A stretch of 64,000 bases of DNA from an uncultured delta proteobacterium. Lineage in GTDB: Bacteria; Desulfobacterota; Binatia; DP-6. The stretch is taken from assembly GCA_963815115.1 (NCBI GenBank), contig CAWFFN010000007.1, forward strand, positions 1,088,001 through 1,152,000, given 5' to 3'. The position numbers and the translations under genes were made by a program. Numbering within the stretch: the stretch's first letter is position 1; each line of letters starts with the position of its first letter. The notes beneath the pieces were generated by a model. It saw nothing but the letters and a program-made list of their open reading frames with translations. It had not been told where the DNA came from and made no database searches. Positions 1-17,980 of the stretch are shown here, one piece after another.

Positions 1-577
1 GGCGACCGTCATGCTGCTCGCCTACCATCGGGACCTCCGCGACCGCCGCATCCGGGCCGTCCTGCCGATCGCGCCGCCCTTTTCGTGCGCGTTCACGCGG
101 GCGTTCTACAAGGGCGTGCGCCTGCCCTTGCTGGTCCTGCAGGGCGACGCCGACGGTCTCGTACCGATCGAGGAGAACGCGCTCCGCGTCGTGCGGCGTG
201 CGCGGGGGCCACGCGCGCTCGTCGAGCTGCACGGCGGTTCGCACCTGGGATTCACGGGATTCGCCAGTGTCCTCGGCACGCCCGGGGACATCGACCGTTT
301 CGGGTGCGACTCGTTGCTCGGGGCGACCGGATCCGACCCGTTTTTCCCGCCGCTTCCGGGCGGACGCCGTGCGGGGGTTGCGAGCGACCAGTGCTCGCCG
401 CCCTGCCAGTCGGCGCCGCCGCTGGCGACGCTCGATTTCGAGCGCCAGCACGAGCTGACGCGCATCGTCGCGGCAGCGTTCTTCGACGCCGAGCTCGGCG
501 GCGACCGGAGCGCGCGCTGCTGGCTCGCGCGGGGACTAGCCGGCGAGAACCCGGATGTCGCCACGCGGCGGCGCTGA
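1..577 (+). CDS. Alpha/beta hydrolase family protein, C-terminal part (5' end outside window)
   Basis: Motifs DRRIRAVLPIAP, LLVLQGDADGLV (acid) and GGSHLGF (His), as in secreted dienelactone-hydrolase-like enzymes. Confidence 0.7.
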   Translation, partial: ATVMLLAYHRDLRDRRIRAVLPIAPPFSCAFTRAFYKGVRLPLLVLQGDADGLVPIEENALRVVRRARGPRALVELHGGSHLGFTGFASVLGTPGDIDRFGCDSLLGATGSDPFFPPLPGGRRAGVASDQCSPPCQSAPPLATLDFERQHELTRIVAAAFFDAELGGDRSARCWLARGLAGENPDVATRRR

Positions 578-791
578 CTGCCGCCGCCCGCTCCAGCGCC
601 GCCACGGCCAGGAGCGGGCGCGAGCACCCGCCCGGCGGCGAAGCAGGTGACTAGGGAAGCTCTGCCGCAAGGCGCTCGACATGGTAAAAGAGGAGCGTGT
701 CGGGCGATGAAGCTGGGAGGTGGGGGATGGGTGAGCAGCGCACGTTCGCCGGCATCGCGTGGAGCCAGAAGGGCAAGGTGAGCCGGCTACT

Positions 792-1664
792 ATGACCAAC
801 GCGCTGCTCCTCCTCTTCGCGACGTCGGCCCTCGCCTCGCCCACTGCCACCCTCCCCGTGAGCACGAAGCGTGGGCTGTGCGCGACCACGTGCCAGGCTC
901 AGAGGGCCGTCCTCTGCGGCGGCCTTGCCGGCGCGGAGGCCGAGCAGTGTGGCGAGGCGCTCGAGTCGGCCTGCCGCCGAGGCAACCCGCAGGAGGTCTG
1001 CGCGATCACGAATGACGCGGCGGCGGCCGGGGCAGTGCTGTGTCAGAAGCCCAACGGCCTGGTGATCCTGCGGAATGCGTCTCCAGGATGCAAGCCGAAG
1101 GAGACGGAGATCGGTGTCCTGGGGGAGCCGGCGCCGGGCGGGGCGACCGGGCCCACGGGTCCTACCGGCCCTGCTGGTTCTCCTGGTCCGCAAGGCCCGC
1201 CGGGGCCGACGGGTTCGCAGGGCGTGCAAGGCGTTCCGGGGCCACCCGGCTCGATTGGCCCCCCCGGGCCCACGGGCGAGGTCGGTGATGCTGGACCCAC
1301 CGGCCCCACGGGGGCGATGGGAACGACTGGCCCGACGGGGGCGACAGGTGCCACGGGCGCGGGCTCGACGGTGCGTGTCACGGTCGAGACGGCGACGACC
1401 GTGAGTGAGGTGCGGCCCGACGTGGGGACGTTGCTCGCCGCCACCGCAAGCTGTCCACCAGGCCAGCAGGCGACGGGTGGGGGCGTGTCGGCCTCGCCGA
1501 GCAACAGCGCGGACGATTCCCGCCTACACACCCTCGAGTCGGGCCCCGTCCCTGGCGCCATCCCGCCCGTGCAGTGGTTCGGTCGCATCGGGGTGATTCA
1601 ACGCTTCTCGCCCGGCAGCGTGTTGACGTTGACGGTGTTTGTGCTGTGCGTGCCGGCTCCGTAG
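792..1664 (+). CDS. Secreted collagen-like (Gly-X-Y) protein
   Basis: Signal peptide [15 protein letters not shown], Cys-rich N-terminal domain, 25 consecutive GXY triplets ([12 protein letters not shown]...GATGAG), C-terminal SCPPG...GGG...VLCV domain. Confidence 0.8.
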
Positions 1665-1854
1665 CGGAGGGGTTCGTTCATGGCGGTAGACCAGTTGCCG
1701 CCGAAATTCCCAGCCCTCGACGACGCGCCCAGGCGAGACGCCGGGTGTCGTCGATTCCTCCTGGAGCCGGTCGTGCGATCCCGGCAGCCTCCCAGAGAGT
1801 GCCAGGCCCCGCGGCCTGGCCGAGTGAACGACGTTGACCCACGACCTTCCTGGT

Positions 1855-1872
1855 TGTACAGGAACCGGTACA
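1855..1872 (+). promoter_or_regulatory. YefM-type operator overlapping the yefM-yoeB promoter
   Basis: TGTACA (1855) and GGTACA (1867) 12 bp apart, matching the known YefM TGTACA double-repeat arrangement; TTGACC -35-like hexamer at 1834-1839. Confidence 0.65.
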
Positions 1873-1885
1873 ACTCCAAGATGCG

Positions 1886-2134
1886 ATGAACATTGTCGGC
1901 TACAGTGCGGCGCGACAGCGGTTGGCAAAGCTGATGGACTCCGTGGTCGATGATCGCCGGCCGGTCGTGGTCACGCGGCGAAAGGCCCCGGCGGTGGTCA
2001 TGCTGGCGCTCGACGAGTACGAGGCGATGGCCGAGACCCTCCACCTCTTGCGCAGTCCGAAGAACGCGCGCCGGCTGCACAAAGCGGTACGCGACGCCGA
2101 CGCTCGCCGGTTCGTCCGTAGTCCGCGAGGATGA
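1886..2134 (+). CDS. yefM: YefM/Phd family antitoxin
   Basis: YSAARQRLAKLMDSV...PVVVTR...VMLALDEYEAMAETLHLLRSPKNARRL. Confidence 0.92.
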   Translation: MNIVGYSAARQRLAKLMDSVVDDRRPVVVTRRKAPAVVMLALDEYEAMAETLHLLRSPKNARRLHKAVRDADARRFVRSPRG

Positions 2135-2397
2135 TCGAGCGCTGGACGGCGGGAGCCGCCCAGGACTACCGCTGGTTCCGCGCCCAGGATCCGAGGACCG
2201 CGGCCCGCATCGATCGCCTGATCGAGGAGACCAAGCGCAGGCCGTTCGCGGGTATCGGCAAACCAGAACCGCTCCGCGGGACGCTGACCGGGTGGTGGTC
2301 GCGCCGTATTGCGGGCGAGCATCGCCTCGTGTACCGCGTCGTGGGCAAGGGCGCAGCGCGTGAGTTGCAGATCGCGCAGTGTCGATACCACTACTGA
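2131..2397 (+). CDS. yoeB: YoeB/Txe family toxin
   Basis: GIGKPEPLRGTLTGWWSRRIAGEHRLVY...CRYHY; ATGA overlap with yefM. Confidence 0.95.
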   Translation: MIERWTAGAAQDYRWFRAQDPRTAARIDRLIEETKRRPFAGIGKPEPLRGTLTGWWSRRIAGEHRLVYRVVGKGAARELQIAQCRYHY

Positions 2398-2442
2398 AGC
2401 AGTGGACTGACCCGACCACGAAGCGCGTTCGGGTAGTGTTCG

Positions 2443-2485
2443 AGTGCGCCCAGGCTGATTCGAACAGCCGACCTTCTGATTCGTA
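2443..2485 (-). repeat. tRNA-Arg 3'-half copy 1 (att scar)
   Basis: 43 bp identical to 3590-3632; runs from the anticodon loop to the acceptor end. Confidence 0.92.
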
Positions 2486-2813
2486 ACCGTCGGCACGCGT
2501 GCTCGTCCGTCCTGATTCAGCGTCATCCGTAGCCATTCGCGGACGCGCGGCCTCGATGACTTCGGATGACGTCGAATCAGCTCAGATGGCGCGGTTACCG
2601 AGTAGTCATCGAGAACCAGCCGAGGCGGCGGGCGAGCGCCACGATCGCGCGCTGTTCCTGGAAGACGCGCCGGGCAGATGGCTGGTAGGCACGAAGAGCG
2701 AATACCCCTTCGTGCGTCTTCCACGACCGCGAACGAACCGAGTGGACCCCGGGGGCGGAACTGCCACCCTCAAGCGACGCACGAAGCGGCGGCAGCCAAG
2801 CAACTGATCTCTC

Positions 2814-2857
2814 AGTGCGCCCAGGTTGATTCGGACAGCCGACCTTCTGATTCGTAG
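2814..2857 (-). repeat. tRNA-Arg 3'-half copy 2 (degenerate att scar)
   Basis: 44 bp, 2 mismatches versus 3590-3633 (T-loop and T-stem damaged). Confidence 0.9.
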
Positions 2858-3088
2858 ACAGAAGATTTTTCGCGTGCTCCGCCCACGATTGGCGCGGGTT
2901 TTCAGCGTCTCCCGAGGCGCTCAGATCCCGATGTCGCCAGTCGTGTCGCCACCCAGGAGCGACGCAGCGATCCTGCCGTGCTTCGGGTCGTCCTGCAGCC
3001 GATCGGCCGCACCCAGGGCCTCTGAGCAAGACCACCCGTGGATCCGTCCTCGGTGTTACTCGTACTCCTGGCGTGGTAACGTCGAGCC

Positions 3089-3295
3089 ATGGAGGAGCTG
3101 ATCTTCGTGGTCGAGGAGGCACCGGAGGGGGGCTTCACGGTCCGCGCGCTCGGGCCGTCCATCTTCACCGAAGCGGACACCGTCCCCGAGCTGCACGCAC
3201 AGGTCCGAGATGCCGTGAGCTGCCACTTCGACGAGGGTCAGGCCCCCAAGGTGATCCGGCTTCATTTCGTCCGCGACGAAGTGATCTCGGCATGA
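3089..3295 (+). CDS. hicB: HicB-like antitoxin (short, RNase H-like fold only)
   Basis: LIFVVEEAPEGGFTVRALGPSIFTEADTVPELHAQVRDAVSCHF; ATGA overlap with a hicA-like gene. Confidence 0.75.
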   Translation: MEELIFVVEEAPEGGFTVRALGPSIFTEADTVPELHAQVRDAVSCHFDEGQAPKVIRLHFVRDEVISA

Positions 3296-3542
3296 AGCTG
3301 CCGCGGGACCTATCGGGTCCCGACCTGGCGAAGGTGTTGCGTAGCCTCGGCTACAAGGTCACCCGCGCCAAACCGGAAGCCACATGCGGTTGACCACCAC
3401 GCAGCGCGGCGAGCATCACGTCACCGTACCTGGCCACGGCCCGCTCAGCGTCGGGACACTCGCCGGCATCCTCGCTGACGTGGCCGCCCACTTCGAGATG
3501 AGCCGCGATGACCTGATGATGAAGCTCTTCGGCGGGAACTGA
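3292..3542 (+). pseudogene. hicA: HicA family toxin, frameshifted (extra GC at ~3367)
   Basis: Removing 2 nt gives MKLPRDLSGPDLAKVLRSLGYKVTRQTGSHMRL...HHVTVPGHGPLSVGTLAGIL..., with the HicA GSH motif; may be an assembly error. Confidence 0.85.
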
Positions 3543-3588
3543 CAGCGGACTTCGCACTGTCCGCGGGACTCGGGCGACTCGGGACCGA

Positions 3589-3633
3589 AAGTGCGCCCAG
3601 GCTGATTCGAACAGCCGACCTTCTGATTCGTAG
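3589..3633 (-). repeat. tRNA-Arg 3'-half copy 3, distal att site of the 15 kb element
   Basis: 43/45 identical to 18686-18730; the two differences are a compensatory T-stem base pair. Confidence 0.95.
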
Positions 3634-3685
3634 CAGGAAGGTCGGCCGCACACTTCCCGCTGGAAAGTCACGCGCTTCGCGCCGC

Positions 3686-4879
3686 TCAGGCGTCGCCGCT
3701 TGCAGCGCCGCTTGCAACCAGCGCCGCCAGCCGATCCGCTGCCGCCGGATCGCGGTCGCGAATCCAGCTCCCGTAGACGTCGATCGTCACCCGGATCGAG
3801 CTGTGTCCGAGCTGCTGCTGCACCCACTGCGGCTTCGCCCCGGCGAGCAGGTGCAGGGTGGCGAACGAGTGCCGCAGCGCGTGCGGCGAGAACGGGGCGG
3901 GCTCTCCCGTTGCCATGAACCCGGCCTTCACGAGCACCCGGGCGAAGTCGCGCTCGACGTTCCGCTGGCTGAACGGCGTGCCGTTGCCCGTGACGAACAG
4001 CCACGGCGGCACGGGACGCCAGCGCCGGCCCATCGCGAGCGCCGGGCGCTTCGCCTTCACGTCCGCGAGCACGGCGATCAGCTCCTCGCTGAGGTCGATG
4101 GTGCGCGCGCGACTCGTCTTCGTGGTCCCGGGCATCGGCCGCCGCGGACTCGAGTCCTGCCCGAGCGACCGGCGGACGTCCCCTTCCCGCTGGTCGAGGT
4201 GGAGATCCTCGAGCTGCCAGCCGAGCAGCTCGCCGAGGCGGAGCCCGGTATGGGCGCCGGCGAGGTAGAGGCCGTGCAGCCGCGAGCACCGCTCCGCCAT
4301 CGCGAGGAAGCGAGTGAGCTGGTCCTGGTCCATGGCCTTCACCCGGTCCTCGCCGTCCGGGTCGGCCTCGAACTGCTTGCGCAACGTCTTGCCGGGGACG
4401 GCGACGGGGTTGAGTGCGATCAGCTCGTCCTCGGCCGCCTCATTCAGCAGCGCGCGGAGGGCGGCGAACATCAGGCGGACGCTGTCCGGGGCGTAGCCCT
4501 CCCGTCGCTTCGCCACGACGAGCGCCTTCACAAGGGGCCGCTGGATGTCGGCGAGCCGCAGATCCCCGAGCCGCCGGCCCCGCACCACGAAGGGCAGGAC
4601 ATGCTGCTCGAGGAGCGCCTGATAACTCGCGCGCGTCCGCGGCTTCCAGGTCGCCGCATTCGCCTCGAGCCAGAGCGCCGCATAGGCGGCGAGCGTCTGT
4701 CCCGGATCGCCCACCGGATGCAGCGTCACCTTGGGCGTCGCGTTGACGACGGCCTGCCGTGCCTCGGCCTCCGTCTTCGTGGCGTAGAACTCCTGCCGGC
4801 GCTTGCCATGGGCGGTCGTGAACTCGACCTTCCAGCGGACCGCGCCGTGGTTGTGGACCTTGGTCGGCTTGCCGGTCAT
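3686..4879 (-). CDS. int: Tyrosine recombinase / phage integrase
   Basis: TGLRLGELLG (R), TTKT (K), HALRHSFAT (HxxR), LGHS and DVY (Y); N-terminal arm-binding region; abuts the att site. Confidence 0.97.
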   Translation of the reverse strand: MTGKPTKVHNHGAVRWKVEFTTAHGKRRQEFYATKTEAEARQAVVNATPKVTLHPVGDPGQTLAAYAALWLEANAATWKPRTRASYQALLEQHVLPFVVRGRRLGDLRLADIQRPLVKALVVAKRREGYAPDSVRLMFAALRALLNEAAEDELIALNPVAVPGKTLRKQFEADPDGEDRVKAMDQDQLTRFLAMAERCSRLHGLYLAGAHTGLRLGELLGWQLEDLHLDQREGDVRRSLGQDSSPRRPMPGTTKTSRARTIDLSEELIAVLADVKAKRPALAMGRRWRPVPPWLFVTGNGTPFSQRNVERDFARVLVKAGFMATGEPAPFSPHALRHSFATLHLLAGAKPQWVQQQLGHSSIRVTIDVYGSWIRDRDPAAADRLAALVASGAASGDA

Positions 4880-5070
4880 CGCTTACCGCCGCGCGGGATC
4901 GTCGCGTCGGTGATGACGTACTTTATCAAGCGGACGACCCCCGCGGGGACGGCTACGGTGCCCTGCTCCCAGCGCCCGACCGTCCGGGGTGTCACGCCGA
5001 GGCGACGGGCGAACTCGACTTGCGTCCACTGCTGGCGCCGCCGGAGCCGGCGGACCTCCTGACTGGTCAT
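4876..5070 (-). CDS. XRE/Cro-type HTH regulator
   Basis: VRRLRRRQQWTQVEFARRLGVTPRTVGRWEQG; ATGA overlap with int. Confidence 0.85.
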   Translation of the reverse strand: MTSQEVRRLRRRQQWTQVEFARRLGVTPRTVGRWEQGTVAVPAGVVRLIKYVITDATIPRGGKR

Positions 5071-5284
5071 GCTGTCCAGTAGACACCATGTCCTGCCCGG
5101 TGTCCAGACGGCCCGCGAGGAAGGCCTCGAGGGCGGCCGGATGCACCCGGAAGCACTTGCGGCTCGCGATCAGCGCCGGAAGCCGGCCGGCGCGGATCAG
5201 CCGGCGCACCTCGCGCTCGCGGATCTGGAGCACCGCCGCGACCTGGGCGGGCGTGAGCGCGTGCAGGTGCTCGGCGTCGGCCAT
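4883..5284 (-). CDS. Excisionase-like HTH protein (long C-terminal tail overlapping the XRE gene is doubtful)
   Basis: LTPAQVAAVLQIREREVRRLIRAGRLPA...FRVHPAALEAFL; AAGGAG RBS before ATG at 5284. Confidence 0.75.
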   Translation of the reverse strand: MADAEHLHALTPAQVAAVLQIREREVRRLIRAGRLPALIASRKCFRVHPAALEAFLAGRLDTGQDMVSTGQHDQSGGPPAPAAPAVDASRVRPSPRRDTPDGRALGAGHRSRPRGGRPLDKVRHHRRDDPARR

Positions 5285-5343
5285 CACTCCTTCGGGTTGA
5301 GGCGCGCGCGCCGGTGTCGAGCCGTCGCGCGCGCCGTCTCGTC

Positions 5344-5787
5344 TCAGTATTCGTCGGGGAGAAGCACTGTCGTCTGCGGACGACCACGACGATCCGTCAT
5401 CACCCACACCTCCTCGATGCCCGGCACGTCCGCATAGCTGCTGTGCACCGTGGTGTAGGCACCATCGCGGTGCGCGATGGCCGACAGCGTGCCGGCGTCG
5501 TCCGTCGCGAAGCAGCCACGCCGCAGCTGATCGTCGGTCACCTCGATCGTCCTCACGTGACCGAACTTGCCGAAGTCCCCTTGCGCGTGCCGCAAGAGCC
5601 AGGGGGTGAGGACGCTCGCGACGGGCTTGAATCCCTGCCCGTGCAGTCCGAGCGCCGTGACGACCCCTGGTGTCACCACCACCGGCCCGAGGTGCACGAA
5701 GTCGACGACGCTGCTGAAGATGAACTGCACGCCACCCTCGTCGATGAGGTCCTGCACGCTCCCGAACTCGAACTCGATCGCTTCCAT
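5344..5787 (-). CDS. Plasmid/ICE-related hypothetical protein
   Basis: LGPVVVTPG...LLRHAQGDFG...VWVMTD...TTVLLPDEY resembles a family common on mobile elements. Confidence 0.65.
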   Translation of the reverse strand: MEAIEFEFGSVQDLIDEGGVQFIFSSVVDFVHLGPVVVTPGVVTALGLHGQGFKPVASVLTPWLLRHAQGDFGKFGHVRTIEVTDDQLRRGCFATDDAGTLSAIAHRDGAYTTVHSSYADVPGIEEVWVMTDRRGRPQTTVLLPDEY

Positions 5788-6008
5788 GTCTGCCTCCCTA
5801 GTGAGCCCCGCGTCCTCAACGCGGGGGCTGGCCGCGGCCGGCGCCGCGGGCGTGGTGGTGGTGGTGCGGCAGGACCAGCAGCGCAGGTCCAGATCGCCAC
5901 CGGCCGGGGCGATCAAGACGCCGCAGCTCCGACAGGGCACCCGTCGGACGACGTCCCCAGTGGACGGCCAGACGCCGATGTCGCTCCGGGCGATGTCATC
6001 CGGGCGCA

Positions 6009-8384
6009 TCACGGCACGAACCCGCCCTTGGGCGGCCAGGGCGTAGGCGTACCAGCCGAGATGACGGTGACCGGACCGAAGATCTCGACGACGGTCTGGA
6101 GAGCAGCCTTGTCCGCCGCCAACGTCGCGGCCATGTCGTCGACGACATCGTCGGGCCCATCGACGAGGAGCTTGTCCCCGTCGATGTCGATGAGGATCTC
6201 GTCGGGATCCGGCTCCCGGTCGCAGCCGGCGCACTCGAGAGAGCCGCAGGTCACGCAGGCGAGGCGGACTCGATTCCCACTACCCCCTACCCCTGGGGAA
6301 GTAGAAAACGCCGGGAAGCGGGAAGCCGATTTTGACCCCTTCTCTCCCAAGGGTTTCCGCTCCGTTTCGCTTCCCGCCCTTGTGTCGCATGGCCGGGAAG
6401 CGGGGGTGCTCGCTGCGGCACGACTGGCGCGGCTTCCAGGATCCGCTTCCCGCTTCCCGGCTTCCCGCTCACTTCTCCCGACCACGACGGTGGGGTGCCC
6501 CGCCCGCATCAGATCCTTCACCAAGGACCAGGCGCGCCCGTCGTGCTCGTCGAGCAGCGCACGAGCCCGGTTCCGAGGGGCGCCCGCATCCTGGAGGACG
6601 GCGCCCGCCTCGCCCAGGGTGAGCGGCAACTCCGTGGCCTTCGCCCGACGGTCCACCTCGGCCACGAGGGTGGCGACAAGCTTGGCCTCAGCCTCGGCCC
6701 GTTCGGCGGCCGCCTGCGCCCGGGCGGTCTCGCCGGCCGCGTGGAGCTCCGGAGTCACCTCGCGCAGCGACCAGGGCTCGGCGCCGAGGGAGATCTCGAG
6801 GGCGAACGGCTCCGGCTCCTCCCCGACCCGGAACTTCGACGGGATGAAGGCGAGGACGTAGCGGTCCCGCTTCGTGCGGCGCGTGGCCCGCTCGGCCCAA
6901 TCGGCCCGGCCAGCCGCTGGCAACTCGGTCCACCACTCCTTCGTCCCGCTCGGCTGAAAGCCGGTGGCGTCCCGCACCTCGTAGGCGATGTCGGCTCGGT
7001 CCTCGATGACGCCGCTCCCCCGCCCGTGCGAGCCGCTCTTGATGGTGTTGCCGAGGACGAGGATCGCGGGGCCGCCAGCCCGATGGACGATGTCGAGCAG
7101 CGGCGCGATGGCCTTCGCCGGCTTGCTGGAATCCTGCTCGCCGATGCCCTCGGTGCTCGCGTCCAAGCTGTCGACGATCACGAACGCATAGGTGCCGAAC
7201 GGGAACGTCCGCCAGGCCGCGGCGTCAGTGAGCGGCGGGACCTCGTCGCGGGTCATCACTTTGAGCGTGGTGAGATCCGCAGCCCCCCAGGCACGCAGCC
7301 GTCGCCGGATCTCCCGCTTCGCGTTGTCGCGGTCGAGCAGCAGGACCTCCTGCCCCTTCCGCGCCAGCTCGATGGCGAAGGCGTACGAGACGTGAGTTTT
7401 TCCCAGACCTCTCGGTGAAAAGAAGTTGGTGAGCGAGCCCTGGCTGAGGACGCGGGGGATGAGCCAATCGAGTGCGGGATCATCACCGGCAAGAAATTCG
7501 GTGGCCGGCACAGCCCTGCTCCAGATGTTTCCCGACGAGCCGGCACCCGTGAACGAGGTGCCGGTGTCGAACGTGTCGGGCCCGAACCAGCTCGCGAGCT
7601 TCTCGAGGACGGGGGCACCCACCAGCTCGGCCACGCGAGGGCCGCCGGTCGCCTGGCCGCCCCGGGCGAGTCGCTGCGCCGTCGTGAGCACGTCCCGCAC
7701 GCGGTCGCGCGTCTCTTCGTCGCCGGCCACCCCCGCTGCCGCCCCGACGATTGTCTGCACGACCTCCACGGGCACGGCGCGCCGCAAGAGATACCCCGCA
7801 GCGGCAAGGGCAAGGTGGTGCCGCACCCCGACCTCACGCGGCCAGATCCGCGCGAGCAATGCGGTCACCGCGATGGACCGCACGGCGGCCACGAGTAGCG
7901 CGGTCGGCACCACGGCCGGGGTCCGCGGCTCGCCCTCGAACGCGATGACGTCGCCGTTCGGATGCACGGATGGCGGCCACACAGTCTGTGAGCGGGTCGA
8001 GAGCATCTCGACGAGCATGTCGGTGCGCTTCGTGACGGGATCCTGCGGGGCGGTGAACTTCGTCGTCGGCGGCGTCGGGATGCACCGATACAGCCAGTGC
8101 GACCGCGGCTTCCCGGGTCGTCCGAAGACGAGCGGCGTCGGCGACAGGAACAGCGCCGCGACGGCAACGGCTTCGGGCGCGTCGAGGTCGACGTCGACCA
8201 GGCCGCCCGACGGGTCGCCGTTCAGGACACCGACGTTGCTGTCCGGATGGAAGCGGCCGACAGACTCCTCGGTGTGGCGCTCGTCTGGCCAGTGGTCGCG
8301 GCCCGGATTCTTGGAGCCGCGGGGGATCTCGATCGGTGCGAAACCGGCGGCCAGGTACCGTCGGGCTGCTTCGATGGCGGTCAT
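6009..8384 (-). CDS. Bifunctional primase-polymerase fused to an AAA/RecA-like helicase
   Basis: N-terminal AARRYLAAGFAPIEIPRGSKNP, NVGV, LVDVDLD, HWLY, VWPPSVHPNG; Walker A SPRGLGKT; Walker B VIVDS. Confidence 0.9.
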   Translation of the reverse strand: MTAIEAARRYLAAGFAPIEIPRGSKNPGRDHWPDERHTEESVGRFHPDSNVGVLNGDPSGGLVDVDLDAPEAVAVAALFLSPTPLVFGRPGKPRSHWLYRCIPTPPTTKFTAPQDPVTKRTDMLVEMLSTRSQTVWPPSVHPNGDVIAFEGEPRTPAVVPTALLVAAVRSIAVTALLARIWPREVGVRHHLALAAAGYLLRRAVPVEVVQTIVGAAAGVAGDEETRDRVRDVLTTAQRLARGGQATGGPRVAELVGAPVLEKLASWFGPDTFDTGTSFTGAGSSGNIWSRAVPATEFLAGDDPALDWLIPRVLSQGSLTNFFSPRGLGKTHVSYAFAIELARKGQEVLLLDRDNAKREIRRRLRAWGAADLTTLKVMTRDEVPPLTDAAAWRTFPFGTYAFVIVDSLDASTEGIGEQDSSKPAKAIAPLLDIVHRAGGPAILVLGNTIKSGSHGRGSGVIEDRADIAYEVRDATGFQPSGTKEWWTELPAAGRADWAERATRRTKRDRYVLAFIPSKFRVGEEPEPFALEISLGAEPWSLREVTPELHAAGETARAQAAAERAEAEAKLVATLVAEVDRRAKATELPLTLGEAGAVLQDAGAPRNRARALLDEHDGRAWSLVKDLMRAGHPTVVVGRSEREAGKREADPGSRASRAAASTPASRPCDTRAGSETERKPLGEKGSKSASRFPAFSTSPGVGGSGNRVRLACVTCGSLECAGCDREPDPDEILIDIDGDKLLVDGPDDVVDDMAATLAADKAALQTVVEIFGPVTVISAGTPTPWPPKGGFVP
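6296..6466. repeat. GGGAAGC iteron cluster, candidate replication origin
   Basis: Forward copies at 6313, 6320, 6395; reverse copies at 6369, 6445, 6452, 6460; degenerate copies at 6296 and 6432. Confidence 0.6.
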
Positions 8385-8444
8385 GGAAAGGTACCTTCTC
8401 GGCCCGAGCCGGCGCACAAGACGCCAGCCCGGGCCGCGTTCGCG

Positions 8445-8915
8445 TCAGAAGGGGATGTCGGTCTCCGGCGGCGACGCCGGAGCCTGCGGTGATGCTGTCT
8501 GCGGTTGCGGTGACGGCAAGAGCTTGGTGATCCGTGCGAAGGATTGGCCAGGCTTCTTCGTCGACGGGACGTATTCGATCAGCGCCTGGCACTGGCGGCC
8601 GAGGAACATGCCGCTCGTGATGTTCTGCCCGTCGGCCGGGATGTGGACTCCGAGCGCCCGGCAGATCGCGCCGAGGTTCGACTTCTCGTGCGTCGAGAAG
8701 TTTGTCATGAGCTTGAAGGTCCCTTCGCCCGCGTGGCCGATGGGGACGATGTCGAAGACGAGCTTCTGTTCCGGCTCGTCTGACTGGTACTTCGTGCCTT
8801 GCTTGGTCGTGACGTCCACGACCTCGACCGGGTACACCCCAGCCGGCTTGGTCCAGTCGATGAAGCCGCCGCTCTCGGCGCGCTTTGCCTTTCCGAGGAT
8901 CTGGTCCTGTGCCAT
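8445..8915 (-). CDS. SSB-like phage replication protein
   Basis: PAGVYPVEVVDV N-terminus, acidic SSB-type tail ETDIPF, RBS AAAGGAG, upstream of the primase. Confidence 0.7.
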   Translation of the reverse strand: MAQDQILGKAKRAESGGFIDWTKPAGVYPVEVVDVTTKQGTKYQSDEPEQKLVFDIVPIGHAGEGTFKLMTNFSTHEKSNLGAICRALGVHIPADGQNITSGMFLGRQCQALIEYVPSTKKPGQSFARITKLLPSPQPQTASPQAPASPPETDIPF

Positions 8916-8936
8916 CGACAATCTCCTTTCAGGTGG

Positions 8937-9273
8937 TCAGGTCGCGGACGACGATGTTGTGTGGAGCCAGCAGCCACCGGACCCGCGGCAGTGGCGAACG
9001 TAGCCCGTCGCCAAGATGGCCCTGGCCGCCTCCTGCACCGCCTCCCGCTTCCAGCGGCGCTCGTGAGCGAGCCGCAGCACGGCCCGAACCGTCCTCCGGT
9101 CGTGGTGCAGCGAGTACGCAGCCCGGATCTTTCGCGCTGCGATGTCCGGCAAGCTCGGGTCGGTGCCGAACTCTTCGACCGAAGTGCCGGACGTTCGCGG
9201 CGGCCTTAGCGCGCCGTTCGAGTGTCCAATCGCGGGAGTGGACGGGGGGAAAGTTGAACGCTAGAGTCGTCAT
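8937..9273 (-). CDS. Hypothetical protein with an apparent +1 frameshift at ~9180
   Basis: RBS GAGGAG and ATG at 9273; dropping one G joins MTTLAFN...RHF to VEEFGTDPSLPDIAARKIR... Confidence 0.45.
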
Positions 9274-9412
9274 GTCGATCGGTTCTCCTCTGTTCGGGTG
9301 ATGGCCGGACCGGCGCTCGACACGCCGGTCCTGGCCCCTGGACGAAGTGACGGGCCTGCGATTCCCGCCGACGGGGGACCGCGGATCACGACACCGGACC
9401 GGTGCGCGGCGG

Positions 9413-9604
9413 TCACGATGCCTCCTTGAGAAAGCTGGCGAGCTCCGAGCGCAGCCACCGCGGCCGCCCCGCCACCCGGCGCGGGCGTGGCAAGTCACCG
9501 CGGGCGACCATTCGATCGATGGTTGATCTCGAGAGCCGCCAGAGCCGGCACAAGTCGGCCGCGCTCAGCATCGCCAGGCTGTCGTCGTCGGGGTGCGTCG
9601 TCAT
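9413..9604 (-). CDS. alpA: AlpA family HTH regulator
   Basis: LSAADLCRLWRLSRSTIDRMVARGDLPRPRRVAGRPRWLRSEL. Confidence 0.85.
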   Translation of the reverse strand: MTTHPDDDSLAMLSAADLCRLWRLSRSTIDRMVARGDLPRPRRVAGRPRWLRSELASFLKEAS

Positions 9605-9645
9605 GGTGACGCCCGCATACACCCGCGACTCGCACCCACCGAAAA

Positions 9646-9685
9646 TGCGTGCTACGCAAACCCCCGCAGAATCCTCGATTCTGCG
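9646..9685. promoter_or_regulatory. Palindromic operator candidates in the divergent switch region
   Basis: TGCGT-gct-ACGCA (9646-9658) and perfect CGCAGAATC-ctc-GATTCTGCG (9665-9685) between alpA and the divergent gene. Confidence 0.45.
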
Positions 9686-9699
9686 TTCGCACTCACAGC

Positions 9700-10572
9700 A
9701 TGCGACGAGACGAAGGCTACTGGAGCGCCGTGGCGCTGGTGGGGTTTGCCAACCTGCCCATCACCCGCGCCACGTGGCGCAGCCTCTGGGGCGCGTGGGG
9801 CTGGCCATCCTCGCCGCCGCTCCGGACGCCGGCGCGCCGGCGCTGGGACGCGCGGATGGTCGGGCTCGCGCGAACGGGACGCGTGGACGAACTGCAGCGG
9901 GCGTATCGAACCGAACTGAGGCGGTACGGCGATGAGGGCCGCCGCGCGTCCCTCGACCCGGCCGACTGGGTGCGGGGGCTGCCGGAAACCCCCGTCGATC
10001 TCGAGGGGCGGGTGGCGCTCATCGACCGCTCAGGCGACCTCTTCATCGACCCACCGACGACCCGGCGCGTCGGCGTCGTCCTGGCGGTGCACCAGGCGGC
10101 GGGGGACCGCCTCGCGACCATCATCGCCGGCAAGCCACAGGCACTCTACAGCCTCTGCACCGCGCTCATCCGCGTGCCGCTCGGCACGGGGCTGGCGGTG
10201 ATCCGCCATGTCGGCTCGGACGGCCTGCAGGCCGAACCACCAGCCGACGAGACAGAGTCGCTCGCCGCGTGGGTCGACGGCCTCTTCCTCCGTGCGGCCC
10301 GCGCAGGCTTCTGGCCACGGTTCTTCACCTGCGCGACCTGTGGGCGGTTCACCGTCGGGCGACTCCGGCGGGCACGCTTCTGCAGCAGCCGGTGCCGCGC
10401 CCGGGCGCACCGGAAACAGCATCCCAGGTCGCAGCCCGGGGCTGCGATCCGTGCCGCGGTCGAGACGCTCCGCCGGCAGGGGGTGCGCGCCGACACGGCG
10501 GTGGCACGGGTCGCGCGGCAGTTCGGTTTTCCCGAAGCCGCCGTCTGGCAACTGACAGCCCGGCACTCCTGA
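9700..10572 (+). CDS. CGNR-type zinc-finger protein, putative regulator
   Basis: CATCGRF...RARFCSSRCRARAHRK followed by an HTH-like tail. Confidence 0.65.
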   Translation: MRRDEGYWSAVALVGFANLPITRATWRSLWGAWGWPSSPPLRTPARRRWDARMVGLARTGRVDELQRAYRTELRRYGDEGRRASLDPADWVRGLPETPVDLEGRVALIDRSGDLFIDPPTTRRVGVVLAVHQAAGDRLATIIAGKPQALYSLCTALIRVPLGTGLAVIRHVGSDGLQAEPPADETESLAAWVDGLFLRAARAGFWPRFFTCATCGRFTVGRLRRARFCSSRCRARAHRKQHPRSQPGAAIRAAVETLRRQGVRADTAVARVARQFGFPEAAVWQLTARHS

Positions 10573-10624
10573 GTGGCCAGGAGTGCACATCTTAACTTAA
10601 CGTCGGGCGAGTGGCTCGCTTCCT

Positions 10625-11362
10625 CTACTCCCGGTCCATGTCGGAGAACTCTCGCAACTGGTCGGACAGAAACTCCTCCACCTCGTCGCCGGTGATGCAG
10701 GCGGAGTTGGCGGCACTGTTGAGGTGCCGCTGTGCCTCTCGCACGCCATCCCGCAGCTGCACGAAATCCACAACCCACCCTTGGCCGAGCGTTGGGTTGC
10801 CGTCCTTGAGACGCCCGTACCGGAACGCCTCGCCAGTCGGATCGACCTGGTGAAGCTTCGCGATGACGTCCCGCACGATGGGCGGCAGCGGTAACCCGTC
10901 GTACTTGAGCAGCTGCAGCCAGGGGACGACCCCGCGGTCGAGGAGCTTGAGCAAGTCATGGCTGCGCAGCAAGCCGGCGCTCTCCTTGCGAAGCTGCTCG
11001 GCTCGCTGGGTCAGCTTCTTGTCCAACTCGCGGGCTCGCTCCTTGAGACGGATCGCGTGCTGGACGTCACGGATCAGCTCCTTCAACTCCAGCTCGAGCC
11101 CATGTCGATACAAGAAACAAATCGGATACCACAGTGGCGGCGTCGGGAGGGGTCGCCTGCCGCTGGGGGTCTGGGTTGCCTGGATCACCTTGAGGACGTC
11201 CCCCGTCTGGAGGGCGGCTTCCGCCTGGACGACGTCTTCAACGAGTCGGTCCGCCGCGTCGAGGAAGCCCGTGCGATACGCGAGGTCGTCGTTCTGCGCG
11301 CTGAGTTCGACCGGGCACGTCGCTGTTGCACTGGTCGGGGTGGGCTTCTCGTCCTTGGGCAT
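10625..11362 (-). CDS. HEPN-like helical cargo protein
   Basis: YPICFLYRHGLELELKELI...HDLLKLL...DPTGEAFRYG pattern of HEPN-related island proteins. Confidence 0.6.
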   Translation of the reverse strand: MPKDEKPTPTSATATCPVELSAQNDDLAYRTGFLDAADRLVEDVVQAEAALQTGDVLKVIQATQTPSGRRPLPTPPLWYPICFLYRHGLELELKELIRDVQHAIRLKERARELDKKLTQRAEQLRKESAGLLRSHDLLKLLDRGVVPWLQLLKYDGLPLPPIVRDVIAKLHQVDPTGEAFRYGRLKDGNPTLGQGWVVDFVQLRDGVREAQRHLNSAANSACITGDEVEEFLSDQLREFSDMDRE

Positions 11363-11524
11363 CGAAGGGATCGCGCTACTGCACCGGCCCCGTCGCGCTC
11401 ACCAGATCGCCCGCCGCCTCCAGCTCGTCGAGGAGCTGCGCCGCCTCGGCCTCGGGCACGCCGAGCAGCTCGGCCACGAGGGCATCGGCACGATGTCCTC
11501 GGGAAGCCAAGCGAGGGCGGCTAG

Positions 11525-13176
11525 CCCGGATAATTCACGCCCGCCAGCGTGAAGAAGCCACCGGACCCCTCGAAGTGTGCTATTGACGCGGTTGTCGAGG
11601 CCAGCGTCGAGCACGCTGAGGAGGGGTGGCGGTGGCTGCAGAGTGTCATAGTCGATTCGGCTTCGCTTTCCAACGGAAGCTCACGGCTGCGTTCGACGGC
11701 GGCGAGATCACGACCGAGGCGGGGCTGCTCCTTGTTCGGGAGTTCGACGAGCGGTTGGGGCTGACGGCGGCCCTCCGCGACGCGGTGGCGGATGAGCGGG
11801 ACCGGCGCTACGTGACGCACGACGTCCTCACGCTCCTGCGCCAGCGCCTCTACCAAATCGTGGCCGGCTACGAGGACGCCAACGACGCCACGACCCTGCG
11901 GCACGATCCCGCGCTGCAGAGTGTCGTCCACCGGCTCGGGACGCCGCTCGCGTCGCAGCCGACGCTCTCGCGCCTCGAGAACGCGGTGGAGTGGGACACG
12001 ATCCGACGCCTGGGCACCGTCCTGCGCCAGTGGTTCACCCGGCACGGGGTCTCGCACCTCGAGCCGCCCGGGGAGGTGATCCTGGACCTCGACTCCACCG
12101 ACGACCCGACGCACGGGCAGCAGCAGCTCAGCTTCTTCAATGGCCACTACGACGAGCACATGTACCACCCGCTGCTCGTCTTCGCCGACGGCTATCTGCT
12201 CGGCGCGCGGTTGCGCCCCGGCGACGTCGGCGGTGCGACGCATGCCTGGCCGCTGCTCGAGCCGATCATCGCGCATCTGCGCGCGCAGCTGCCGACCACC
12301 GGGCTCGCCCTGCGGGCCGATGGCGGCTTCTGCAACCCCGACCTGCTCGATGCGGCGGAGCGGGCGGGGCTCACCTACGCGATCGGCATGGCCCCCAACC
12401 CCAGGCTGGACGCGGCCGTCGCGCTCCACCGCGTCCACGCCCACGTCACGTATGAACGCACCGGCCGCCCGGTGCGGTGGTTTACGAGCGTTCACTACCA
12501 GACGCGCAGCTGGGCACGGCCACGGCGCGTGCTCGCGATGATCGAGCACACCGCCCAGGGCCCGAACGTCCGCTACGTGGTCACCAACCGCCGCGGCCGG
12601 GCGGCCGAGATCTTTCACTGGTACCACCAGCGCGGGCAGGCCGAGAACTTCATCAAGGAACTCAAGCGCGATCTCGCCGCCGATCGACTGTCGTGCCACG
12701 CCTTCCGCGCCAACGCGTTTCGCCTCCTGCTGCACGCGCTCGCCTACGACCTGCTCCAGCTCTTCCGCCAGCGCGTGCTCGCCGGGACCGCGCTCGCGAG
12801 CGCGACGCTGGGCACGGTGCGCCTGCGGCTGCTCAAGCTCGGCGCGCGCGTCGTGCGCTCCGTCCGGCGCTGGTGGTTCCACTGCGCCTCCGGCTGGCCG
12901 GGGCAGCCCCTCTTCCTCGTCGTCCATCGCCGGCTCCGCATGCTGCGTGCGTCGCCCTGACGGCTTGGGCGCGCCGCACACCTCGGAGCTGCTCCTCGCC
13001 GCGGTATCCGACCCCGCTGCGCCGCGGTGTGGTTGCCGCCCGCCAGTGCACGCCGCTTGAGCCCGCCACGAGCCGCGTCGCCGCTCGCGAGGCCCGCGGT
13101 CACGGCACCCGAATCCGTCGCGGGCGATCAGCCCGTCATCCGCCCTGGGTGACTGGCACTTCATGAATGATCCGGG
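11525..13176 (+). mobile_element. IS1380 family insertion sequence
   Basis: TIRs CCCGGATAATTCAC / CCCGGATCATTCAT (12/14); CTAG on both flanks (11521-11524, 13177-13180); 1652 bp. Confidence 0.92.
11626..12960 (+). CDS. IS1380 family DDE transposase
   Basis: FDGGEITTEAG, LASQPTLSRLEN, LDLDSTDDPTHGQQ, LRADGGF, YHQRGQAENFIKELK, FRANAFRL. Confidence 0.96.
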   Translation: MAVAAECHSRFGFAFQRKLTAAFDGGEITTEAGLLLVREFDERLGLTAALRDAVADERDRRYVTHDVLTLLRQRLYQIVAGYEDANDATTLRHDPALQSVVHRLGTPLASQPTLSRLENAVEWDTIRRLGTVLRQWFTRHGVSHLEPPGEVILDLDSTDDPTHGQQQLSFFNGHYDEHMYHPLLVFADGYLLGARLRPGDVGGATHAWPLLEPIIAHLRAQLPTTGLALRADGGFCNPDLLDAAERAGLTYAIGMAPNPRLDAAVALHRVHAHVTYERTGRPVRWFTSVHYQTRSWARPRRVLAMIEHTAQGPNVRYVVTNRRGRAAEIFHWYHQRGQAENFIKELKRDLAADRLSCHAFRANAFRLLLHALAYDLLQLFRQRVLAGTALASATLGTVRLRLLKLGARVVRSVRRWWFHCASGWPGQPLFLVVHRRLRMLRASP

Positions 13177-13230
13177 CTAGGCCGGCGTCGTGCGCATGGG
13201 TGGGGTCGGCACGATGGACGTCCAACGCTG

Positions 13231-14070
13231 TCAGCTCTCCGTCGACCCGAAAGTCGAGAGTCCCGCCTCGGCTGCCAGCAGCTTCCACATATCTGGAGGG
13301 TTGAACATCATTGGGCGTGCGAAGTTCCCTTCAAGTGCGGTGAGAACCTTCATCCAAGTGGCCGTTGTAATCTCGCACATCTTCACCCTCCTTACGATTG
13401 CCTTCGATTCTGACGATGGGATGACGACCCCGAACCACGGTGGGTCGTCGAACGTAGCCGCGATAGCCGCCTGCCCACGCCAGCCATGAAAGCCGCAACG
13501 ACGCTCCGTTCCCGTCGCCCCATAAGACGCGCTGAAGAGCATCTGTCCGAAGAAGCAGAGACCACGCCTGGGATCAGACTGTGCTCTCAGACTCTCTACT
13601 TCACGCCGGAACAATTCGATGATGTCCTCCGCGCGCTCAACGTCCAGGATGCTATACCGGTGCTCAACGGCGTTCCTGTCGTCAATTGCCCTGGCCAAGA
13701 CGCGTTCCGCTAGCTCGTCGATAATCCGCCGTCTGACCAACACTTCGCTCTTCTGGTCTGATGTCGCCGGCGCGTCTCGGCAGAATGCGAAGCCATCTCG
13801 CCGAAGGTACCAGTCCACAAGAGAGCCCAGACCCCGCCGGGCATTCGTGACGGCGTTGACTGTGTGCCGGTGCTTCCTACCTGAATCGACCTCGCTGCGA
13901 GCTTGCTGAATCTCGGCGACGGCCCACTGCAAATACTGCCCGTCATCGATTTGTCCCGGGGAAGTCCAGGTAAGCCCCGTCGCCTCGTGCCCGCTGAGCG
14001 TGCCAACGGCACTCAATATGTCAGCGGGGTCGAGCGGTTCGAAGCTGCAAACGCCCTTGGTCACGTCCAT
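13231..14070 (-). CDS. HEPN-motif cargo protein, candidate defence RNase
   Basis: Helical N-half with NAVTNARRGL and an RxxxxH motif RNAVEH; visibly lower GC than the flanks. Confidence 0.6.
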   Translation of the reverse strand: MDVTKGVCSFEPLDPADILSAVGTLSGHEATGLTWTSPGQIDDGQYLQWAVAEIQQARSEVDSGRKHRHTVNAVTNARRGLGSLVDWYLRRDGFAFCRDAPATSDQKSEVLVRRRIIDELAERVLARAIDDRNAVEHRYSILDVERAEDIIELFRREVESLRAQSDPRRGLCFFGQMLFSASYGATGTERRCGFHGWRGQAAIAATFDDPPWFGVVIPSSESKAIVRRVKMCEITTATWMKVLTALEGNFARPMMFNPPDMWKLLAAEAGLSTFGSTES

Positions 14071-14189
14071 CCCGGGTCACTCCTCACCTAGTCCGTTTGC
14101 TCTTCCTCCGGGCGCTCGGCGCTGCCAGCACGGGGGCGTGAAAACCGGGGGAGGCCGTCCTCAGCCGACGAGGCTATAGAGTTCTTGAG

Positions 14190-14450
14190 TCATCGCGGAC
14201 CGACTTGAACGTTGAGGCTGCGACTGTTGCCGTAGACGGCGGCCCGGCACCCTGCCGGATCGCCGCCCTGACGGATGCAGCTATCAACGTCCGCAGCCTG
14301 GCGTTCGCGAGCGCGAGCTTCGGCCTCGCGACGTGCGCAGTAGGGGCTGTTGTGAATGCCTGCGATGCGAGAGCCCTCGTCGCCGCAAGGGACCATGCAG
14401 CCCGCCAAGCCGACTACTGCGGTGAGGCACGCGCGCGACAACAGGCGCAC
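14190..14450 (-). CDS. Small lipoprotein
   Basis: Lipobox LAGC after a hydrophobic stretch; Cys pairs. Confidence 0.5.
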   Translation of the reverse strand: MRLLSRACLTAVVGLAGCMVPCGDEGSRIAGIHNSPYCARREAEARARERQAADVDSCIRQGGDPAGCRAAVYGNSRSLNVQVGPR

Positions 14451-14624
14451 GCTTGATGGCTACCAATGTTCCCCTAGTTCTTCAAGGTGGGGCGCCGAGG
14501 CGACCCGCTCCCAACCCCGACGGCACCGCGTCCCTGTCACGCTCCCAGGACGTGCGGGCGCGGGGCCGCCGGGTTCACGTCACCGCCGCGGCCGCCCCCC
14601 GCCCGCCAGCCGCGCGCCCTCGTA

Positions 14625-14951
14625 TCAGTCGAAGGCTCCCGCGACCGTCAGGTCGGCCAGCTCGGTCAAGTGCACGCGGACGGCGTCCTCAAGGTCTCGA
14701 TGCACTTGCGCCCCATCGATCCCCCAGCCCGCGGCGAGGACCGCCGCAACCCGGGCTGGCCAATTTAACCAGGCATCGCGATAGCCCTGCGCGGCATTCC
14801 TCACGACGCGCGTGACGGTCGCGATCTCGGCCAACTCGCCGCGGCGACGGCGCACCTCGAGCTGCCGCAGATCAGCTAACGCCGTCTCCTTGCGGCGCCG
14901 GGCCGCCTCGAGGCTCTCGCCGGGAGCCTGTTTCCGCCCCGCCCCGCTCAC
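14625..14951 (-). CDS. Terminase small subunit-like protein, C-terminal (oligomerisation/TerL-binding) part
   Basis: SLEAARRRKE...RRGEL...RDAWLNWPARVAAVLAA...LEDAVRVHLTELAD resembles Nu1-type TerS C-termini; GTG start overlaps the upstream TGA. Confidence 0.7.
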   Translation of the reverse strand: MSGAGRKQAPGESLEAARRRKETALADLRQLEVRRRRGELAEIATVTRVVRNAAQGYRDAWLNWPARVAAVLAAGWGIDGAQVHRDLEDAVRVHLTELADLTVAGAFD

Positions 14952-15253
14952 TCGTCGTCGTCGGTGTTCCACTCCGCCCCCGCGGCATCGGCCCGGCGCA
15001 CGAACTCCCGCCAGATGTAGTCTGACACCTCGGTTTCTGGATCGAGCCACGGCCGAAACTCCCGCGCGCGGCCGGGCCGCTGGAGGGTGCCCAAGGTATT
15101 GCCGCGCCAGTCCTCCAGCACCCCCACCGCGTCCCACCGCCCATCCTCCTCCCGGGTGATCGTTCCGCGAGCCTCGGCCTTCGCAATCGCCTGGCGGGCC
15201 ACGCCCAGGATGGCGGCGAGCTGGCTGTCAGTGTCGACGAAGGCGCGGGACAT
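14948..15253 (-). CDS. Terminase small subunit-like protein, N-terminal winged-HTH part
   Basis: SQLAAILGVARQAIAKAEARGTI...GRWDAVGVLEDWRGNT, Nu1-like DNA-binding domain. Confidence 0.65.
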   Translation of the reverse strand: MSRAFVDTDSQLAAILGVARQAIAKAEARGTITREEDGRWDAVGVLEDWRGNTLGTLQRPGRAREFRPWLDPETEVSDYIWREFVRRADAAGAEWNTDDDE

Positions 15254-15386
15254 CGGGGTTACCGCTCATGCCGGTCGCTCCGGGTGCCGGACCCGGGGGG
15301 ACCCTGTGAGAAACCGCAGGCTTCGTTCGCCATGTCATCAGGAGGTGCAACCCCGATTTTGGGGGTGAAATCTAGGCCAACGCTGC

Positions 15387-15430
15387 CCCCCGACGCCCCG
15401 CTCCGCCTCCACTTCATTCCCAGGACCCGT
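15387..15430 (-). other. Lambda-like cos packaging site (cosQ plus cosN-like)
   Basis: Minus strand ACGGGTCCT-N21-CG-GGGCGTCGGGGG versus lambda ACGGGTCCT-N21-CG-GGGCGGCGACCT (lambda recalled from memory); ~135 bp upstream of terS. Confidence 0.65.
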
Positions 15431-15575
15431 GACCGCTAACTACGAATCCGCGGGGCATGGCGGGGCGTTGACCGCTGATCGGGTAGGTTACGGCCGCACG
15501 GTAGACTGCGAGTCAAACGCGCTTTCGACGAGGATTCGGTCAGGCAGGAGGGCAGGTGGGTGCCGCGTTGGTGCT

Positions 15576-16034
15576 CTACTGGAAGAACCCCTCGCAGTAG
15601 TAGGCGCCGAAGTAGATCCCGCGGTAGTCGACCACCGCGGCGTTCTCCCCGTGCACGGGCTCGTAGAGTGCCGTGTCGGGCTCCTTCTCGGAAGCCAGCA
15701 TCGCGAGTCCCACCGGGACGTTCACCAGGCCATCGGTGAACCGCATCACCCCAGCGGCGACGTTGAGTATCGTGCAGGAGGCGATGTACGCACCGAACAT
15801 GACGGGTGTCAAAAGGACCTTCTGCAGTGGCGGTTGCTTGCCATTGACGTAGAACTTCCGCACGAAGGTCGAGCTCGCGGTATACGGGGAGAGGGCAAGG
15901 TCGAGGGGCGTTCCGACGAGGTCCATCGCGCCTCGCGCGAGCGTGTCGGTTTCCGCCCACACCGGGCCGGTCCATGCCAGTGCCGTGGCCAGCAGCGCTG
16001 CGGTTGCGGTCCGTCGTGCCGGTCGCATCCCCAT
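15576..16034 (-). CDS. Secreted/membrane hypothetical protein
   Basis: Signal peptide ending PVWA; amphipathic helices (LARGAMDLVGTPLDL...GVMRFTDGLVNV). Confidence 0.6.
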   Translation of the reverse strand: MGMRPARRTATAALLATALAWTGPVWAETDTLARGAMDLVGTPLDLALSPYTASSTFVRKFYVNGKQPPLQKVLLTPVMFGAYIASCTILNVAAGVMRFTDGLVNVPVGLAMLASEKEPDTALYEPVHGENAAVVDYRGIYFGAYYCEGFFQ

Positions 16035-16157
16035 GGTGGCCCTTTTTTGGACGCCACTTCGAGTCGTGACGTCGGGTGCCCCTACGGCTTCGGCTGTTTA
16101 GTCGAGACGTGTGCGCCTCGTCAAGTAGGCGATTTACCGCTGCGCGCGCCTTCCGGC

Positions 16158-16379: not shown

Positions 16380-16385
16380 GCCGCG

Positions 16386-16922: not shown

Positions 16923-16933
16923 CGCGTCTCCTT

Positions 16934-17398: not shown

Positions 17399-17399
17399 G

Positions 17400-17905: not shown

Positions 17906-17913
17906 CCAGCATC

Positions 17914-17943: not shown

Positions 17944-17980
17944 GAAGTGGCGCGAATGGATGGACGATACGCGGATGCCC

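Follow-up and report, generated by a model that had tools for sequence, protein, structure and literature searches.

The 64,000-nt stretch analysed here (the window, to which all positions without a contig label refer) lies within a 1.24-Mb contig of an uncultured soil bacterium whose 6.9-Mb genome, with 70% G+C, comprises 12 contigs and 60 tRNA genes. Near its left end, three direct copies of the 3' half of the tRNA-Arg(ACG) gene delimit two very short units, the larger of which holds a toxin-antitoxin (TA) gene pair of hicBA type, and the row continues with a ~15-kb integrative element and the intact tRNA gene. The array is composed of the following features.

2443-2485, minus strand: scar copy 1, a tRNA-Arg(ACG) 3' half whose T stem reads GGCTG/CAGCC (repeat search, alignment)
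2486-2813, unstranded: unit A, 328 bp, gene-free by Pfam and NCBIfam searches of its open reading frames (ORFs)
2512-2536 and 2556-2580, unstranded: hairpin-forming inverted repeat with 25-nt arms in unit A (repeat search)
2814-2857, minus strand: scar copy 2, decayed, with the T loop changed from TTCG to TCCG and the 3' strand of the T stem from CAGCC to CAACC (alignment)
2858-3589, unstranded: unit B, 732 bp, with a hicBA pair as its sole content (ORFs, Pfam)
3089-3295, plus strand: HicB-like antitoxin candidate of 68 amino acids (aa), open frame (gene neighbourhood, weak fold match)
3292-3542, plus strand: hicA toxin gene with one frameshift near 3364-3368 (PF07927, alignment to intact homologues)
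3590-3633, minus strand: scar copy 3, identical to copy 1, distal attachment (att) site of the 15-kb element (alignment)
3634-18687, unstranded: island C, a ~15-kb integrative element between copy 3 and the intact gene (tRNA and Pfam annotation)
3686-4879, minus strand: tyrosine integrase, 397 aa (PF00589, 77 bits against a cut-off of 27.1)
18688-18762, minus strand: intact tRNA-Arg(ACG) gene, the integration target, T stem GGGTG/CACCC (ARAGORN; Rfam RF00005, 72.2 bits)

The repeat search identifies the three copies as one direct-repeat family (2443-2493, 2814-2864 and 3590-3640), with starts 371 and 776 nt apart. With up to three mismatches allowed, the 40-nt repeat core matches the window four times (at 2446, 2817, 3593 and 18690), none being expected from 100 shuffles. 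Upon alignment in the tRNA sense, identity begins at U33, in the anticodon loop, in all copies and runs to 2-3 nt beyond the discriminator; in copy 2 it extends back to tRNA position 28. Repeat search, alignment and shuffling thereby confirm that the three scars are real and well beyond chance, as a first-pass annotation had proposed from the letters when it described three direct tRNA 3'-half copies starting in the anticodon loop. The spacing it gave, 328 bp and 731 bp, also holds, the unique DNA between the copies measuring 328 bp (2486-2813) and 732 bp (2858-3589). Across the whole genome, just these four copies are found with up to eight substitutions, one of them in the intact gene, and the tRNA-Arg(ACG) gene is single-copy. 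No additional degenerate scar was detected in the 20 kb on the left side or the 24 kb on the right side, where the next-best match spans 12 nt, and tRNA alone passed in an Rfam scan of positions 1-20000. In the T stem, both strands differ between the intact gene and the scars with pairing kept, and this joint change agrees with replacement of the entire 3' half. Copy 3 matches copy 1 at all 43 nt; copy 2 carries two private changes, and one of these disrupts the pairing of the T stem.

The intact gene and the 15-kb element are parts of the locus that the first-pass annotation had not mentioned. The end of the integrase gene lies 53 nt from scar copy 3, and its product scores far under every Xer and integron cut-off in NCBIfam. 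The other annotated genes of island C are listed below.

4876-5070, minus strand: small helix-turn-helix (HTH) protein adjoining the integrase (HTH_31 and HTH_3)
6009-8417, minus strand: primase-polymerase/AAA_25 replication protein (PF09250 and PF13481)
9413-9622, minus strand: HTH_17 protein, an excisionase-type fold family (PF12728, 34 bits)
11626-12960, plus strand: insertion sequence (IS) transposase, inserted into island C (PF13701, 479.8 bits)
17699-17905, minus strand: second HTH_17 protein (PF12728, 26.9 bits, slightly below the cut-off of 27)

Because integrase, HTH and replication genes are found between copy 3 and the intact tRNA gene, these two sites can be regarded as the att sites of an apparently whole element. 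No conjugation genes were detected in island C by Pfam. At the copy 3 junction, a 12-nt inverted repeat with one extra base is readable from the sequence (3614-3646) around the anticodon-loop letters; an inverted repeat around such letters has the look of a tyrosine-integrase core site. The common boundary of the copies, together with the position of the integrase beside one of them, bears out the proposal that a single tRNA gene was the target of repeated site-specific integration, which left the copies as att-type scars.

For unit B, the gene pair assigned to it as hicBA is indeed located there; the assignment requires correction in that hicA is frameshifted and its partner, for which no Pfam match was found, is only HicB-like. 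The fragment 3375-3542 matches positions 20-55 of PF07927 with an E-value of 1.1e-4, which is below the family cut-off, and the intact hicA homologues, 80-83 aa long, carry this domain. Alignment of 82-aa HicA homologues places residues 1-25 at 3292-3366 and residues 24-82 in the next frame. Consequently, a HicA domain is present in unit B, yet the toxin gene is not the open frame that a HicBA pair comprises. A short metagenome contig from a soil run covers 3284-3434 with no difference, this run being from the same study as the organism and not independent of it.

Pfam has no model for the very large family to which the 68-aa protein belongs. At 80 public-genome loci, the gene following the HicB-like homologue is a full hicA in 53 cases and a partial one in 17, with none in the remaining 10. 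The structural model of the protein (predicted local distance difference test score, pLDDT, of 91) displays a strand-strand-strand-helix-strand arrangement, for which Foldseek returns weak matches to 1wv8, 2yzt and the HicB3 structure 6u0i_B (probability 0.92-0.97, E above 0.05); in a PDB profile search the best match is again 2yzt (E 0.017). Gene neighbourhood and the weak fold match suggest that the protein is HicB-like and a candidate antitoxin. As for its three nearest genomic relatives (G013:C105, G008:C386 and G037:C2), hicA is truncated or missing in all of them, and in G013 the HicB-like pair is located directly upstream of a tRNA-Leu gene.

The ORFs of unit A give no Pfam or NCBIfam match. 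Apart from the hairpin-forming inverted repeat, this unit contains one copy of a dispersed repeat of ~85 nt (~2630-2720), of which at least 13 further copies occur in the genome. The same repeat is also found in the related genomes G001, G002, G004 and G010; it folds into a conserved hairpin (fold z-score -2.07) and has no Rfam match.

Taking these features into account, the locus is probably the product of tandem accretion of integrative elements at the sole tRNA-Arg(ACG) gene, the small units being integrase-less relics that resemble cis-mobilizable elements (CIMEs). As such, the structure is one further well-resolved example of an already known kind. An intact tRNA gene is accompanied downstream by same-strand 3' repeats with the boundary observed in other islands, as in tandem tRNA islands, and an integrase beside an att site is found for island C only. 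Units A and B possess attL/attR-type bounds and contain no integration or transfer genes by Pfam and NCBIfam, which are the features of CIMEs. A tblastn search with integrases detected no remnant in unit A, unit B or positions 590-2442 (best E 2.7), and the earlier suggestion is supported in so far as both small units lack an integrase. Marks of decay are evident in the two changes of copy 2, in the frameshift of hicA and in the gene-free state of unit A.

According to this accretion model, elements carrying a copy of the tRNA 3' half would recombine with the gene in or beside the anticodon loop, and each integration would supply a new 3' half while displacing the previous one outward as a scar. 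Island C would be the youngest arrival, having introduced the present 3' half (GGGTG/CACCC), and the older halves would be those with GGCTG/CAGCC. The 732-bp and 328-bp units would represent the remains of earlier elements after loss of integrase and cargo, the former retaining the HicB-like gene and the frameshifted hicA and the latter the dispersed repeat alone. TA pairs would tend to survive longest, since their loss is costly. As the gene is completed by the half that each incoming element carries, every unit probably contributed the scar on its own right-hand side. On this reasoning, the present tRNA 3' half would derive from island C, and copy 1 may have arrived with an element that included the yefM-yoeB genes found just beyond it and that has lost its outer scar.

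The comparison with relatives is consistent with this accretion. The half-tRNA pattern was counted in whole genomes, 25 of the family and 401 sampled from the class, one of the latter being flagged as unpublished and showing a single match. Matches are obtained in 17 of the 25 family genomes and 112 of the 401 class genomes. Two matches occur in 16 class genomes, in 10 of which they share contig and strand at a distance of 1.4-52 kb, and more than two are observed in this genome alone. In all eight other genomes fetched, the extra copy beside this tRNA starts at the 5' edge of the anticodon loop. Of five small to mid-sized islets tested at this tRNA elsewhere, four contain integrase fragments, namely those of G077 (1.95 kb, E 6e-36), G020 (1.36 kb, 5e-5), G119 (4e-42) and G019 (the N-terminal part alone), the islet of G285 (1.67 kb) giving no such fragment. 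The presence of these fragments indicates that the small islets of relatives are decaying islands. The larger ones (G148, G154 and G018) carry whole integrases of different lineages, with a mutual identity of 26-32%.

Several observations weigh against the accretion model. In no relative are homologous units A or B found at the locus, and neither an empty site nor a longer ancestor was seen. Scar-side synteny is lost in the relatives, so that no empty site is definable: the left-flank gene is conserved in G001, G003 and G007 but off the tRNA's contig, and in several relatives the tRNA lies at a contig end. With no integrase fragment surviving in either small unit or in positions 590-2442, an originally larger size of the two units is inferred. 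Furthermore, a simple age order does not predict that copies 1 and 3 are identical and that the middle copy carries two changes. Compact hicBA units bounded by direct repeats are frequent in other places where no recombinase is close by, leaving room for another mode of insertion, and no independent reads bridge the junctions.

Among the closest known systems are the ICESt1-type elements of Streptococcus thermophilus, for which a review describes integration, decay to a CIME and then accretion of a new element (PMC5704250). The likeness to these CIMEs extends to att-bounded units without integration genes, to a newer integrase-bearing element at the same target and to one 3'-end copy per event; the units described here differ in being far smaller (328 and 732 bp), in having arms unrelated to their neighbour and in that this neighbour has no conjugation genes by Pfam. 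The ssrA islands of Dehalococcoides are likewise arranged in tandem; some have no integration module and are discussed as possible CIMEs or fixed relics (PMC3146451). They share with the present locus a row of islands downstream of one small RNA gene, each with a 3'-end direct repeat. Unlike the tyrosine integrase and the 43-44-nt repeat from the anticodon loop found here, the Dehalococcoides islands rely on a serine recombinase, and their 20-bp repeat is located in the T loop of the transfer-messenger RNA (tmRNA).

One alternative is that unit B did not derive from any larger island: a compact hicBA pair would have inserted itself at the tRNA 3' end with duplication of its target, and would later have been pushed outward. 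This view draws on the wider family of the HicB-like protein, for which the 80 best public-genome loci and the 80 best metagenome loci were collected, giving 154 usable loci from many phyla. Direct repeats flank the pair within 1.5 kb at 33 of the 154 loci, compared with 0 of 152 mismatched flank pairs, and 16 of the 33 repeat-flanked units measure 900 nt or less. In controls at shifted positions of the same loci, the tight test gives 15 of 127 modules versus 11 of 548 positions (odds ratio 6.5), and the wide one 17 of 90 versus 9 of 146; at shifted positions repeats are rarer but still seen, in 2-9% of cases. The flanking repeats are 16-430 nt long, and 9 of 24 end within 12 nt of the end of the flanking gene, three of these being confirmed by Pfam. 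In one case a 592-nt hicBA unit is bounded by the 3' half of a tRNA-Pro gene. A second genome holds this tRNA-Pro unit at ~80% identity with a more decayed scar, and its occurrence in two diverged genomes points to a fixed insertion. Among core pairs of 90-98% identity, 13 of 31 have unrelated flanks, the homology breaking off ~45-120 nt upstream of hicB on one side and at the hicA stop codon on the other, with more flank available for comparison. Neither a tblastn search of the 33 repeat-flanked loci with four queries (0/33) nor a Pfam scan of 138 ORFs of at least 130 aa, of 250 passing the filter, revealed integrases; the scan covered recombinase and transposase families as well, and short fragments would be missed by both.

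A precedent is offered by restriction-modification units, for which insertion with a long, variable target duplication has been proposed (PMC3874152). The hicBA family, with its 33 of 154 loci, resembles these units in combining a compact selfish pair, direct repeats of the target and no linked recombinase. In the literature searched, insertion with a long target duplication was not found for type II TA pairs, the idea being encountered only for restriction-modification units. The repeat of unit B differs from such duplications in its fixed boundary, a characteristic of the integrases acting at this tRNA. In eight of eight other genomes, the scars of integrase-bearing islands at this tRNA begin at the very nucleotide where the repeat of unit B begins, which is unexpected for a mechanism with variable duplications, and the same repeat bounds the integrase-bearing island C. 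The fixed boundary argues for an integrase origin of unit B, and independent insertion of the pair is considered unlikely.

More generally, it is conceivable, though less likely than not, that mini-islets containing only a TA pair (~0.5-0.9 kb, with a duplicated target 3' end) are a regular form rather than a peculiarity of the present array, reflecting either a recombinase-free spread or a stable end point of shrinkage that resists loss. Individual hicBA units are situated at the 3' ends of genes for a cold-shock-domain protein (L106:3654-4659), a DEAD/Helicase_C_2 helicase (L071) and a radical-SAM protein (L110), where the duplicated gene ends measure 200, 64 and ~430 nt, respectively.

A second alternative, which the first-pass annotation had entertained as an integron-style cassette array, is that the small units are still mobile, being excised and re-inserted in trans by the neighbouring or a distant integrase with the tRNA halves serving as sites of recombination. 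In its favour, a nearly full scar is present at both ends of each unit, the two being directly oriented, an intact integrase adjoins the array, the outermost and innermost scars agree at all 43 nt, and 6-nt inverted repeats are readable at the anticodon side of copies 1 and 2. The row of small units beside a tyrosine recombinase gene recalls integron arrays, and TA cassettes are common in chromosomal integrons. The recombinase, unlike theirs, is not of integron type (42.5 bits for TIGR02249, cut-off 265; 31 bits for NF011946, cut-off 435), and the bounds are tRNA halves rather than attC hairpins: no attC-type common cassette ends were found, the tRNA half being the sole sequence common to the units. 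The 200-nt arms beside the scars of units A, B and island C show no likeness in local alignments (z -1.2 to 0.8), with no common 10-mer and a single common 9-mer, and arms unrelated to island C argue against movement of units A and B together with it. The broken T stem of copy 2, the broken hicA and the empty unit A also weigh against working cassettes.

The expectation that relatives would differ in cassette number at this tRNA is not borne out either, since no varying array was seen and the 400 other class genomes never exceed two matches. The outcome that was to count against mobile cassettes, units present only as fixed, decaying ends of islands, is matched by analogy, in the islets of relatives with integrase fragments described above and in the hicBA mini-islet at tRNA-Pro, which is fixed in two diverged genomes. 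The read data consist of short, low-depth contigs of four soil-metagenome runs from one study (word shares 0.32, 0.08, 0.08 and 0.07); contigs built from 31-letter words cannot span a 43-nt repeat and are uninformative on circles, unit loss and assembly. Comparison of these contigs with positions 1-19500 yields no joint at any scar, the five joints listed being located away from the scars and having at most 39 letters on the shorter side. No sign was found that the array is presently mobile, and the integron-style reading appears improbable. That the repeats are an assembly artefact is highly improbable, since, although no independent read set bridges the junctions, the DNA between the copies is unique and encodes recognisable genes, copy 2 is not identical to the other two scars, the contig extends over 1.24 Mb and similar arrays occur at other tRNAs of this genome.

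These other arrays were identified among 41 extragenic tRNA-like fragments found by blastn, mostly 3' halves starting at positions 27-35, and are located at tRNA-Ala(GGC), Gly(CCC), Thr(CGT) and Lys(CTT). Two of the fragment sites hold TA genes in an arrangement comparable to that of unit B. At C5:1239061-1239769, an intact hicBA pair of another subfamily (hicB PF15919, 33.9 bits; hicA PF07927, 56.9 bits) lies between tRNA-Ala(GGC) 3' halves 670 nt apart, with a third tRNA-Ala half and an integrase 12.4 kb from this islet. At C7:689433-690659, a tacA antitoxin gene and a GNAT toxin gene are flanked by the 3' half of a tRNA-Met on one side and a tRNA-Glu fragment (positions 4-45) on the other. 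The genome thus contains at least three TA-only units, hicBA at tRNA-Arg(ACG), hicBA at tRNA-Ala(GGC) and tacAT at tRNA-Met/Glu. TA-family matches occur in 6 of 23 scar regions versus 1 of 20 random regions (one-sided hypergeometric ~0.07), so the enrichment of TA genes near scars is suggestive only. In the region C8:708-810 kb, many Gly(CCC), Thr(CGT) and Thr(TGT) fragments lie distant from their genes.

As a scar array, the locus is ordinary and shows a tRNA gene collecting mobile DNA, its 3' half being replaced each time. The interest lies mainly in the survivors: in this genome the shortest units bounded by tRNA fragments contain little apart from TA pairs, and in the hicBA family target duplications bound about a fifth of the sampled loci with no recombinase nearby. 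If this pattern holds, it bears on the mobility of chromosomal TA pairs and the reasons for their persistence, and it would provide a simple sequence signature for finding such events.

To the left of the outermost scar, a second TA pair is encoded by two genes.

1886-2134, plus strand: intact yefM, the antitoxin gene, located beyond the outermost scar (PF02604, 79.8 bits, cut-off 29.8; TIGR01552)
2131-2397, plus strand: yoeB toxin gene, intact (PF06769, 105.2 bits against 27; TIGR02116, 90.4 against 51.8)

Both Pfam domains exceed their cut-offs and the genes overlap, as in a type II TA pair; the yoeB stop is 45 nt from scar copy 1, in agreement with the original placement of the pair just beyond the outermost copy. 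The yefM-yoeB core (1789-2400, from 97 nt upstream of yefM to 3 nt beyond the yoeB stop) has an 88% identical copy in a different context in the relative G001 and a 76% identical one in G013; the homology has sharp ends. No direct repeats flanking yefM-yoeB were found in this genome (G000), G001 or G013. Between the conserved left-flank gene and yefM, positions 759-1664 hold a gene with collagen triple-helix repeats (PF01391) that is not kept there in relatives. The segment 652-787 is 85% identical to C7:470311-470442 of this genome, which itself adjoins another copy of the dispersed repeat, and the open frame beginning in 652-787 may correspond to the N-terminus of an IS5-type transposase.

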